DNA of 64,000 nucleotides from the NCBI RefSeq assembly GCF_044324785.1, contig NZ_CP172127.1; one strand, given 5' to 3'. Every line of letters starts with the position of its first letter. Within the stretch, counting starts at the first letter, position 1. A program made the position numbers and the translations under genes. This DNA comes from Escherichia coli. Its GTDB lineage: Bacteria > Pseudomonadota > Gammaproteobacteria > Enterobacterales > Enterobacteriaceae. The notes below the pieces were generated by a model that saw nothing but the letters and a program-made list of their open reading frames with translations, did not search any database and was not told the origin of the DNA. Positions 6,620 through 9,720 of this stretch are shown one piece after another.

Positions 6620-6807
6620 AGCCTCACCTCCGCAAATAACGGATGGTGTACACGGTTCGGAACGAAGAGGAAAGGTATAGAAGTTACATTAGCGTAAGGC
6701 TTGAACATCTATTCAAAAAGAAAAACGCCAGCGATTATTCTGGCGTAGCTGAAAGCATCATACAATTATCAAATACGAAAAATACAAAATCATTAAAACG
6801 CATCACG

Positions 6808-7394
6808 TTACATCATGTCTTTTTCTAAAAAAAATCTTGATAAATATTGATGGGGAGGAACACCAAAATATCTTCTGAAAACACTTACAAAATATGACGT
6901 GTTTTCATAACCGCATATCTCAGCAACTTTTCCAACAGAATATAAATTGTAGCTTAATAACCTTTCCGCCATCACCATTCGCTCTTCAAGAATTAATTTA
7001 CTAAATGATAAGCCTTCGTGCTTTAATTTTCTTTTTAACAGACTTTCACTCAGATACAGTCTTGAAGATATATCACAAAGTCTCCATGCTGCAGATATAT
7101 CCGTGTGAATAATAGCCTTAACTTTACTTCCTAAACTATTAAGACATCCAAATAAAAACTTTGCACTATTTTCTCTGAAGATAAGATAGCAAGACATGCA
7201 AGTGATATTTGATTTCTAACAAAATCCACAGTTCTGCCATCACAATTCAAGCATGCAATCAAGTTCTTTAACAATGAAAAATCTTCACATTCCACCATCA
7301 AGTATGCCGGATAAAACCTTCTTACAGAAAAAGGTGAGAGTGTGTTGCTTTTAAAGAAATCATTAACTGTTTTCTCTTCAACATCTACGATCAT
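6808..7394 (-). pseudogene. AraC-family regulator (AppY/EnvY-like), apparently frameshifted
   Basis: Two overlapping minus-strand ORFs in different frames (7131-7394 N-terminal part, 6808-7197 C-terminal AraC HTH domain); AT-rich. Confidence 0.5.
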
Positions 7395-7888
7395 TACATG
7401 ATCTATATTTGATGAAAAAAATCTTTTAAATTGTAATCAATGAGAACAGCACTTCCTTTTTTAAACAAAATATCTTCTTTACCAATTCGGACATCAAACG
7501 AGTTCAACACCAAAATGATAGAACATATGTATGGCATATTATCCACCTGATATCATTGGGGTTACACCAGGTAAGTATAGGTGGAAAATCAATATTCGCC
7601 AGTTCAACAATAAGGAAAATCTCATTGCATCACAAGTATAAAATTATGTATTTAACTCACAAAGACAAATTATTAAACCAATCTGTTATATTATATATAG
7701 CTGCGTGGAATCATAATATTATATATTTTGACTGGCATGTTTACCAACTTTAAGTTGCATCTCAATGGTTTCTTCAGCGTAAACAGAGTTTTTATACAAA
7801 CTGACACTCTGGGTATCATAGTGTAGTTTTTACGATTGTAAATATCCTGCATGCAGGAACTCATCCTTTTGGATGATATCGCATACAA

Positions 7889-8848
7889 TTAATTTACCAT
7901 CAGTCTTAGAGCCAGTTCGTCCGGATAGGGATCGAAGTAATTCTGTGTAAGCAAGTAGTCATTAGGATACTCACCCAGATAATGCTTCAGCAGAGTCAAC
8001 GGCGCAAGAAGAGGTAATGTGCCAGAACGATAGTTAAGTATAACCTCGCTCAACTCTTTACGCTGGCGTGTACTTAAGTAGTTACTAAAATACCCCTGTA
8101 TATGCATCAGCACATTCGTGTGATTTTTACGTGATGCAGGTTTTCTGAGAATCGCCATCAGCTTATCACGATACACCTCAAAGTATGATTCAAGGTCCGC
8201 CCACTCGTGTATTGCAGCCACAAATGGTCCCATATCTTTATAGCCTGCCTGACTATGCGCCAACAACTGAAGCTTATAACGACTATGAAAAGCTAATAAC
8301 TCTCTTCTTGATAATTTCTCCTTGTAAAGGTGATTGAGCTCATGCAAAGCAAAAACTCTTTCAACAAAATTCTCACGAAGCACTGGATCATGTAATCGCC
8401 CATCCTCTTCAACCGGTAGCCAGGAAAACTTTTCCATCAAAGTGCTCGTAAATAGTCCCACTCCATCTTTACGACCTCGATTACCATTTTCATCATAGAC
8501 ACGCACGCGCTCCATGCCACAGCTGGGAGATTTAGCACAAACCACAAACCCCGATACATCCTTTAATTTGTCCATATAAGAACGACTAAACTCTGTCATT
8601 CTCTCTGTCACATCCTCATTCTGGTCGTGGCTGAAACACATCCGTATATTTCCTTGCGTCGAGCGCACAAGACGTAGAGCAGGACGCGGAACTGGCAGCC
8701 CTATAGCCATTTCCGGACATACTGGTCTGAATGTTACCCATTCCACTAATTTGTCCATTAAAAAGTCAGCTCTTTTGTGACCACCATCAAAACGAACAGC
8801 AGAACCGGCCAAACAACCGCTGATTCCAATCACAGGTTTTTTTATCAT
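7889..8848 (-). CDS. DUF523/DUF1722 fusion protein (TudS thiouracil-desulfidase-like Fe-S domain plus YbgA-like domain)
   Basis: 319 aa; N-terminus GISGCLAGSAVRFDGGHK with further Cys (CPE, SPSCG) typical of DUF523; C-terminal half YbgA-like; assignment from remembered domain architecture. Confidence 0.5.
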   Translation of the reverse strand: MIKKPVIGISGCLAGSAVRFDGGHKRADFLMDKLVEWVTFRPVCPEMAIGLPVPRPALRLVRSTQGNIRMCFSHDQNEDVTERMTEFSRSYMDKLKDVSGFVVCAKSPSCGMERVRVYDENGNRGRKDGVGLFTSTLMEKFSWLPVEEDGRLHDPVLRENFVERVFALHELNHLYKEKLSRRELLAFHSRYKLQLLAHSQAGYKDMGPFVAAIHEWADLESYFEVYRDKLMAILRKPASRKNHTNVLMHIQGYFSNYLSTRQRKELSEVILNYRSGTLPLLAPLTLLKHYLGEYPNDYLLTQNYFDPYPDELALRLMVN

Positions 8849-9040
8849 ATTCTCCCCCTTGACTAATTCATTAACACATAAACTGTGTAGTGCACGGAAT
8901 AAATTGCCTTTCTGGCGTCATCACTGACAATTTTTCTGTTATGGACTATTCCTAATATAGTATGAAAGTTCTTTAAGTGATCGGTCGTAATCATCTATCT
9001 TTCATACTTACTCTCAACTATCAAAAGTACAGGATTTATT

Positions 9041-9565
9041 ATGAAGTTATGGCCTGTGTTGACTGGCATTGCACTCTCTTTCACTCTTATAGCATGTAAG
9101 GCCCCGACACCACCTAAAGGTGTGCAGCCGATTACAAATTTTGACGCCAACCGCTACCTCGGAAAATGGTATGAAATAGCTCGCCTCGAGAACCGGTTCG
9201 AACGTGGTCTGGAACAGGTCAGCGCTACTTATGGAAAACGGAACGACGGAGGGATTCGTGTACTTAACCGTGGATACGATCCAACGAAAAATAAATGGAG
9301 CGAGAGCGAAGGTAAAGCATACTTTACTGGAGATACTAAAACTGCAGCGTTGAAGGTTTCGTTTTTTGGCCCCTTCTATGGTGGCTATAATGTAATCAAA
9401 CTGGATGATGAGTATAAGTATGCTCTTGTCAGTGGCCCGAACAGAGAATACCTATGGATTCTGGCAAGGACCCCAACTATTCCAGATAAAGTAAAAGCAG
9501 ACTATGTGCGAACCGCTCAAAAGTTGGGATTCAATGTCAATGAATTATTATGGGTTAAACAATAA
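9041..9565 (+). CDS. Outer-membrane lipocalin, Blc paralog (lipoprotein)
   Basis: 174 aa; lipobox LIAC; motifs NFDANRYLGKWYEIARLENRFERGLE and KVSFFGPFYGGYNVIKLDDEY match remembered E. coli Blc. Confidence 0.75.
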   Translation: MKLWPVLTGIALSFTLIACKAPTPPKGVQPITNFDANRYLGKWYEIARLENRFERGLEQVSATYGKRNDGGIRVLNRGYDPTKNKWSESEGKAYFTGDTKTAALKVSFFGPFYGGYNVIKLDDEYKYALVSGPNREYLWILARTPTIPDKVKADYVRTAQKLGFNVNELLWVKQ

Positions 9566-9592
9566 AATCCCTACCCGAAATAATACTTATTA

Positions 9593-9620
9593 GAAAAAAA
9601 CCAGCCTTTGGGGAGGCTGG
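9593..9620 (-). terminator. Intrinsic terminator downstream of Q (tR'-like)
   Basis: Minus-strand hairpin CCAGCC-8nt-GGCTGG followed by U7. Confidence 0.5.
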
Positions 9621-9720
9621 CTAAATCAGGAAACAAGCTGTTATATGATAATAACTACGTTGCGATTCTAACATTTAAAATGTTAGACTAATGAGAATCA
9701 GACAGCAACTTTTCCTTTAA

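Follow-up and report, generated by a model that had tools for sequence, protein, structure and literature searches.

This report concerns a 64,000-nucleotide stretch of Escherichia coli DNA (contig NZ_CP172127.1, assembly GCF_044324785.1), referred to below as the window, and in particular the block at positions 6620-9720, which has a Q21-family antiterminator gene with its terminator on one side and an essD-type holin gene on the other. The block holds three cargo genes: a gene for a Blc-like lipocalin, the tRNA desulfidase candidate rudS, and a gene for an AraC-family regulator. We propose, with a probability of about 0.75, that it is a dispensable accessory cassette built of two modules, that it occupies the Q-holin slot of an undecayed DLP12-type prophage and travels with the Q allele and the region following Q, and that it would be expressed by Q-dependent read-through.

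The Q-holin block is probably an accessory cassette of two modules

Homology between the window and the DLP12 prophage of E. coli K-12 is lost at 6634, a point 15 nt upstream of where the holin starts, and returns at 9739, inside Q and 18 nt from its 3' end. In K-12 the equivalent interval is filled by nmpC::IS5, as expected if morons insert here, and the sequenced phages H33-H40 have the holin in common with the window and nothing upstream of it. Since K-12, whose prophage is 98-99% identical, carries nmpC::IS5 at this place and holin-sharing phages do without the cargo, the block is best read as dispensable accessory cargo in a variable slot, as a sequence-only reading of the same DNA had claimed. 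That reading had also called the block AT-rich and suggested a composition check, which bears it out: G+C content is 38.2% for 6620-9720 (31.5% in the araC part, 43.5% in rudS, 44.2% in blc), as against 46.2% for the prophage portion of the window, 51.3% for its chromosomal portion and 47-54% for the lysis, Q, rusA and terminase genes, a difference from the flanking phage genes that is typical of morons. Signals for independent expression, another mark of morons, give a mixed picture: a terminator follows the araC-like gene (6746-6725) and promoter-like sites matching 10/12 positions lie upstream of it, but such sites are no commoner overall than in shuffled sequence, and no clear terminator follows blc. 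The features of the block and its borders are as follows, in the order of late transcription.

9721-10098, minus strand: Q antiterminator gene of the Q21/QuuD type, 125 amino acids (phrog_79, Q21 structures, identity to K-12 quuD)
9623-9720, minus strand: post-Q regulatory region, candidate pR'/Q-loading site (present with the cargo, near-invariant among alleles)
9599-9622, minus strand: tR'-like intrinsic terminator (9-bp stem and U run, dG -14.9)
9041-9565, plus strand: gene for a blc-like outer-membrane lipocalin lipoprotein, 174 amino acids (NF007786, Blc structures, lipobox)
8849-9040, no strand: divergent rudS/blc intergenic region, 192 bp (33.9% G+C, layout like that of Citrobacter sedlakii)
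7889-8848, minus strand: rudS, a TudS (DUF523) and DUF1722 fusion, 319 amino acids (PF04463 and PF08349, identity to RudS_vir)
7538-7888, minus strand: AT-rich spacer, home to the highest-scoring promoter-like sites and to an approximate repeat of the post-Q element (promoter scan, repeat comparison)
6808-7537, minus strand: AraC-family regulator pseudogene, PatE/AppY/YdeO-like (alignment to intact 243-amino-acid alleles)
6725-6746, minus strand: intrinsic terminator between cargo and holin (7-bp G+C-rich stem and T run)
6404-6619, minus strand: holin gene of essD type, the first late lysis gene (phrog_9876 and phrog_20; essD in relatives)

The division into modules comes from chromosomal relatives of the cargo. 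When one genome per species was scanned, 41 loci turned out to encode a RudS of 66-76% identity; they belong to Citrobacter, Enterobacter, Klebsiella, Leclercia and Lelliottia, among other genera. In 21 of the 41, a Blc homologue with 69-82% identity to the phage protein is found upstream of rudS in divergent orientation. In the usual layout blc points away from a MerR-family gene, a hydroxyisourate-hydrolase-like (HiuH-like) gene and rudS; 22 loci have the MerR-family gene and 18 have the HiuH-like one. Best matches of the MerR protein are MlrA and CarH, both below cut-off. No gene separates blc from rudS in C. sedlakii or in Citrobacter sp. JGM124, and the divergent spacer measures 187 bp in C. 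sedlakii (locus L009) against 192 bp in the phage. The chromosomal flanks include a fimbrial usher gene and FimF in Enterobacter cloacae, and betT, rluF and panS in C. sedlakii. Because the divergent arrangement of blc and rudS is conserved in chromosomes, the island appears to consist of this gene pair and an unrelated, much more AT-rich regulator module, and the description of its contents as three unrelated cargo genes in the sequence-only reading has to be given up. The capture of the pair is probably old, given a DNA identity to the chromosomal homologues of about 66-75% and a chromosomal rudS G+C content of 54-58%.

Within 6 kb of rudS, none of the 41 loci contains an AraC-like homologue, a photolyase gene, ampC or gdx. 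Two candidate associations were dropped on these grounds: the light-operon link reported for rudS, for which the closest relatives lack the photolyase gene, and a likening of the rudS-linked blc to the ampC-linked blc. A search for literature tying LitR, lipocalin and photolyase together found nothing useful. In one E. cloacae locus (L014, 7030-8193) an AAA ATPase gene lies directly downstream of chromosomal rudS, with weak matches to MADS3, the retron Eco8 effector and PtuA that are far below the cut-offs.

The host prophage is integrated at argU (tRNA-Arg(tct), 25507-25583, located with ARAGORN), with the integrase gene adjoining. Left of argU it is collinear with K-12 DLP12 over several blocks at 94-99% identity; the blocks in common are int-xis, the exoD, peaD and renD fragments, emrE to quuD, the lysis genes with bor, and nohD. 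Two stretches of the window, 16417-22572 (replication, immunity and recombination genes) and 1-3354 (head genes), have been lost from K-12 DLP12, and the blocks that flank them are 97-99% identical to K-12; the terminase gene at 1736-3661 is one of the missing head genes. The collinearity, together with 16417-22572 and the head genes that K-12 has lost, identifies the window prophage as an undecayed DLP12-type lambdoid prophage.

The prophage contains other accessory DNA. A second AT-rich island (11803-15793, in the nin region, 33-43% G+C) carries ybcM of the AraC family, ybcL, the recombinase gene ybcK and emrE, and is 98.8% identical to K-12 DLP12. With ybcM and the gene at 6808-7537, the prophage thus holds two AraC-family genes in two separate cargo slots. 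Antisense to the lysis genes lies a further known moron, a bor/iss-type lipoprotein gene (5124-5417, plus strand), which is named iss in close relatives.

The cargo is linked to the Q control region

The Q gene matches phrog_79 ('anti-termination protein Q-like', E 1.3e-51), its product matches the Q21 structures 6p18/6jnx (E 1.9e-8), and its nucleotide identity to K-12 quuD is about 97-99% up to 9739. In the phage collection, 195 nt spanning the Q 3' end and the post-Q region are confined to the 12 records that have the cargo, which suggests that the Q control region and the cargo are inherited as one module. The post-Q region (9623-9720) is nearly invariant among diverged alleles. A -10-like hexamer with ATAACAG (9650-9638) is kept in all of them and forms the short motif in common with the K-12 post-quuD region, which is otherwise dissimilar.

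The order described for Q21-type cassettes is Q gene, PR', sigma-dependent pause element, terminator and late genes. Here a Q homologue is present and a terminator lies 99 nt past its stop, whereas no promoter, Q-binding element or pause element could be placed with confidence. The sequence-only reading was right that a terminator follows Q and slightly off in placing it at 9593-9620, the computed position being 9599-9622 on the minus strand; it consists of a 9-bp stem followed by a U run (dG -14.9 kcal/mol, z -3.6), and since there is no T run on the plus strand it should act in one direction. A second minus-strand terminator, at 6725-6746, was absent from that reading and has a 7-bp G+C-rich stem followed by a T run (dG -11.3 kcal/mol).

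Three candidates for PR' were considered. TTGCTG-17-TAACAT matches just 7/12 positions and TAGAAT reads TGGAAT in most alleles; TATCAT with ATAACAG is conserved, K-12 included, but direct reading found no good -35 for it. We also observed a 20-nt direct repeat on the minus strand, 7676-7695 upstream of araC against 9631-9650 after Q, with 85% identity and, by eye, similarity extending to about 45 nt. It contains the -10-like hexamer and ATAACAG, and a third, shorter copy follows K-12 quuD. The 1H12/ST69 allele lacks the copy next to araC, which was accordingly rejected as a required element; that copy may be a relic of the joining of the two cargo modules, or a second promoter. Control by the SOS response was discarded as well, there being no CTGT-N8-ACAG LexA box anywhere in the window. 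Rfam gave nothing near gathering scores for structured RNAs in the slot of the kind found in Shiga toxin (Stx) phages, and ARAGORN found no tRNA besides argU.

A predicted tRNA desulfidase, a lipocalin and a decaying regulator

The sequence-only reading had named the three genes as a frameshifted AppY/EnvY-like AraC regulator, a DUF523/DUF1722 Fe-S protein and a Blc lipocalin paralog on the opposite strand, and all three names are right. The rudS product combines PF04463 (1.6e-39, residues 7-149) with PF08349 (2.2e-40, residues 192-309) and thus has the DUF523/TudS-DUF1722 fusion architecture. Such fusions strip 4-thiouridine (s4U) from tRNA by means of a [4Fe-4S] cluster held on three cysteines (Jamontas et al., 2024, Nucleic Acids Research (NAR) 52:10543, PMC11417400). 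Cys12, Cys44, Cys110, Glu46, Ser107, Ser109 and Arg55 are present and invariant in the alignment, at the same positions as in RudS_vir and RudS_KT. At 319 amino acids the protein is 93% identical to RudS_vir (H3V29_gp66 of phage 1H12), which lowers tRNA s4U when expressed in E. coli (PMC11417400). We conclude that the DUF523 and DUF1722 protein is in all likelihood RudS, a tRNA s4U desulfidase. A structured hairpin follows the rudS stop (dG -19.8, z -5.1), and promoter matches upstream of rudS are weak (9/12).

The blc-like product scores 316 bits against NCBIfam NF007786, 'outer membrane lipoprotein Blc' (cut-off 267), and matches E. coli Blc structures with E 3.5e-69. Its translation reads a lipobox LIAC with Cys19 followed by Lys, which completes the features expected of a Blc protein. 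Its identity is 60% to K-12 Blc and 79-80% to the Blc proteins linked with rudS in C. sedlakii and E. cloacae. Promoter-like sites in the spacer at 8849-9040 are weak.

Among diverged cassette alleles (dS 0.2-0.3), the ratio of nonsynonymous to synonymous divergence (dN/dS) is 0.10-0.14 for rudS and 0.06-0.12 for blc. As these values are similar to those of Q (0.04-0.12) and the holin (0.03-0.07), purifying selection acts on rudS and blc about as it does on essential phage genes. With a dN/dS of 0.25, the araC-like gene seems less constrained than either.

In the window the araC-like gene (6808-7537, minus strand) is split into three open reading frames by two 1-nt deletions in T runs, T7 for T8 at 7415-7421 and T5 for T6 at 7154-7158, as judged from the intact 243-amino-acid genes of phages IdasGreatGrand and 1H12. 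It therefore no longer encodes a complete AraC regulator here; intact alleles elsewhere carry PF12833/PF00165. The intact product is 54% identical to ECs_0287 of Sakai Sp1 over 235 amino acids and 32% identical to AppY. The gene falls into phrog_1450, and its best NCBIfam match is YdeO, below cut-off. The intact protein probably belongs to the PatE/AppY/YdeO group, ECs_0287 presumably being PatE (z0321) from its position in Sp1/OI-8. PatE, PsrB and AppY are prophage regulators that activate acid-resistance genes. In the spacer upstream (7538-7888) two promoter-like sites each match 10/12 positions, TTTACA-16-TATGAT (7842-7815) and TTGGTA-18-TATAAT (7747-7718). In several independent IMG/VR contigs (L056, L058, L060 and L062) the gene is likewise split at the T8 tract near its start, and among E. 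coli genomes the length of the match differs by 1-2 nt; this shortening could reflect recurrent real slippage or a homopolymer sequencing or assembly error.

A read-through model for expression of the cassette

The model that we favour combines these elements into a history and a mode of expression. The blc/rudS pair would have been captured as a unit from an enterobacterial chromosome, with the MerR-type regulator lost in the phage. The very AT-rich AraC regulator would be the second module, with its own promoter-like sites and terminator, inactivated in this prophage by the two frameshifts. RudS would remove the sulfur of tRNA 4-thiouridine through its [4Fe-4S] cluster, and Blc would be an outer-membrane lipocalin lipoprotein.

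In the lysogen, a transcript starting just downstream of Q (PR') would end at 9599-9622. After induction, Q-modified RNA polymerase would pass this terminator, as Q-loaded polymerase is established to do in this family, and would continue antisense over blc, sense through rudS and the araC remnant, past 6725-6746 and into the lysis genes, so that rudS would be made late. The gene blc would be transcribed separately, from a promoter of its own in the divergent spacer (8849-9040), and the terminator at 6725-6746 would keep cargo promoters from reaching the holin in the lysogen. Read-through of the minus-strand genes and independent expression of blc had both been put forward in the sequence-only reading. 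The anatomy fits this scheme in its gene order, the terminator after Q, the antisense orientation of blc, the sense orientation of rudS and araC, and the second terminator before the holin.

Several observations weigh against this model. In the post-Q region no firm position emerged for PR', for the Q-binding element or for the pause element, and the best -10-like hexamer there (TATCAT, 9650-9645) lacks a good -35; the 14 promoter-like sites in 6300-10200 are no excess over the 11.5 +/- 3.5 found in shuffled sequence. No close donor was found: chromosomal homologues reach at most 76% identity (RudS) and 82% (Blc), with a G+C content of 54-58% where the phage rudS has 43.5%. In the window araC is a pseudogene, and some strains have insertion sequence (IS) interruptions or truncations, so part of the cargo is decaying. 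Finally, the tRNA activity of RudS_vir per protein level was the lowest among the RudS proteins tested (PMC11417400).

The cassette is widespread and rudS appears to have entered lambdoid phages twice

A match to the cargo alone (6650-9590) exists in 1154 of 5426 complete E. coli genomes; in 1000 of them (about 18%) it covers 80% or more of the cargo. Its alleles fall into at least three identity bands, at >=99%, about 94% and about 90%. It is also found in 36 IMG/VR contigs and in 12 phage records, some of them of isolated, viable phages, at 98.4% identity in IdasGreatGrand and 89% in 1H12, 2E9, ev087 and their relatives. The order Q, blc, rudS, araC, holin is constant in all contexts examined, on differing prophage backbones: DLP12 at argU, Qin-like with relBE-hokD-rem-ydfU, lambda-like with ninB-ninE-rusA, and one with a P27-family terminase. 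The cargo is therefore not specific to argU prophages, with which the sequence-only reading had called for a comparison.

Decayed copies occur, with IS1 replacing araC or with other IS insertions. One of them is in E. coli BL21-Gold(DE3) (L047, NC_012947.1 2193306-2194194), where IS3 has cut rudS down to a 147-bp stump in a Qin-like prophage whose Q and blc-like genes are still there, the latter intact; the RudS study used BL21(DE3) for expression (PMC11417400). As a cassette the block is already known: it is annotated, PHROG families exist for all three cargo proteins (3275, 2809 and 1450), and it has been partly studied experimentally through RudS_vir of a sister phage.

Another lambdoid lineage carries rudS in a different place. 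Six IMG/VR contigs (L087-L092) have rudS alone, at 73% identity (4001-4960 in L087), and their RudS is 99.7% identical to that of a prophage of Citrobacter sp. MGH106 (L017). Here the gene occupies the nin region of a distinct lambdoid phage, with the replication genes on one side and dinI-rusA-HNH-Q on the other, and points the same way as these early-right genes; it is just upstream of the dinI-like gene and has a 257-nt upstream spacer and its own terminator. It thus seems that a second lambdoid lineage, represented by the Citrobacter prophage, acquired rudS independently. In both phage lineages rudS is co-oriented with lytic transcription, and this second, again co-oriented acquisition supports a role of rudS in the lytic cycle.

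Alternative explanations

The cassette could instead serve lysogenic conversion alone, with all cargo including rudS expressed from its own promoters in the uninduced lysogen to the benefit of the host, for instance through near-UV tolerance conferred by less photo-crosslinkable s4U8 or through envelope stress protection by Blc, and with Q read-through being incidental. We regard this as a real possibility, though one that falls short of being probable. The listing of blc among the lambda morons of gut coliphages (PMC6969025) agrees with it, as do the retention of a 192-bp divergent spacer like that of the chromosomal pair, the structured hairpin after rudS, the moron anatomy of the Citrobacter phage rudS with its upstream spacer and terminator, and the presence of the cassette in about 18% of complete E. 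coli genomes, many copies being in defective prophages such as the Qin-like ones. It accounts less well for the absence from the phage of the MerR-type regulator that accompanies chromosomal rudS, for the weak promoter matches (9/12) upstream of rudS, and for the orientation of rudS, which follows lytic transcription in two independent acquisitions whereas the lysogen-expressed morons of these regions (blc here, nmpC, bor) are antisense to it. A bolder extension of the read-through model takes RudS as a lytic-cycle device tied to UV/SOS induction. The MerR switch would have been replaced by Q read-through here and by early-operon placement near dinI in the Citrobacter phage, and s4U8 would be erased from host tRNA when a UV-induced prophage needs full translation. 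This idea is speculative and, in our judgement, unlikely to be correct as it stands.

It is quite improbable that the cassette is passenger DNA, persisting by linkage to a successful Q/lysis module and free of any selected function. The frameshifted araC of the window and of several IMG/VR contigs, the IS1 or IS3 insertions and truncations, the E. coli B/BL21 remnant included, and the lack of a donor-like close homologue would all be expected of such DNA. Yet dN/dS stays at 0.06-0.14 for blc and rudS over a dS of 0.2-0.3, as low as for Q, the catalytic residues of RudS are all kept, the orthologue RudS_vir is enzymatically active (PMC11417400), and another phage lineage acquired rudS independently. 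We give least credence of all to a defence or superinfection-exclusion island, in which the lipoprotein blocks a phage receptor or the set forms an anti-phage system. Variable slots such as Q-S often hold exclusion genes, and phage lipoproteins such as Llp and Cor block receptors. Nevertheless, PADLOC returned no match for any of the three cargo proteins, the Blc here is an orthologue-like lipocalin of full length that has a conserved counterpart in chromosomes, and RudS has a demonstrated tRNA substrate (PMC11417400).

Significance and relation to known systems

As a feature the cassette is ordinary, a variable lambdoid accessory slot whose cargo has already been sequenced, annotated and partly characterised. 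Three modest points add to the literature consulted. One is the proposal that blc and rudS were taken up as a ready-made chromosomal pair that lost its MerR regulator. Another is that about 18% of complete E. coli genomes owe a RudS to prophages, which bears on s4U, responses to UVA and tRNA-modification dynamics in natural isolates. As the third, the apparent double uptake of rudS by lambdoid phages, each time co-oriented with lytic transcription, makes a phage-side function of a tRNA-modification eraser directly testable. The most interesting possibility is that temperate phages use an s4U eraser in UV-triggered lytic growth; if so, the near-UV growth delay and the stringent response would be bypassed, and roughly a fifth of E. 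coli strains would carry a conditional tRNA-modification eraser missed by K-12-based work.

Among known occupants of the slot, nmpC of K-12 DLP12 and stxAB of Stx phages lie in the same place, after Q with its terminator and ahead of the holin, and nmpC is antisense to late transcription as blc is here; the cargo of the window is different and includes neither a toxin nor a porin. The AraC-like regulator resembles PatE and PsrA/PsrB of enterohaemorrhagic E. coli and AppY of DLP12 in family, size, very high AT content and carriage by a prophage, and differs from them in lying in the Q-S slot instead of at a prophage end and in being a pseudogene in the window.

The chromosomal cluster of Enterobacter, Leclercia, Lelliottia and Citrobacter has the same divergent blc/rudS arrangement as the phage, with RudS 66-76% and Blc 69-82% identical, and in Salmonella ORF319 (STM1389) rudS is likewise under a MerR regulator; the Salmonella protein, RudS_ST, has equal length and equal cysteine positions (PMC11417400). 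The phage copy differs in lacking the MerR-type regulator and the HiuH-like gene, in a G+C content about 12 points lower and in its late-operon geometry.

Described relatives include the lambda-like infant-gut coliphages of Mathieu et al. (2020, Nat Commun 11:378, PMC6969025), more than 50% of which are listed with blc as a moron. These phages (1H12, 2E9, ev087 and others, our matches H22-H32) carry the whole cassette at 89% identity; the authors name blc as a moron and make no mention of YbgA. RudS_vir of phage 1H12 is the same gene in the same Q-blc-rudS-araC-holin cassette as in the window, separated from it by allelic divergence (dS about 0.3). The RudS study handles this protein in isolation, without its phage context, notes that rudS genes frequently occur within light-responsive operons, and describes E. 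coli as being without TudS/RudS homologues (PMC11417400). The presence of the cassette in 1000 of 5426 complete genomes qualifies that last statement.

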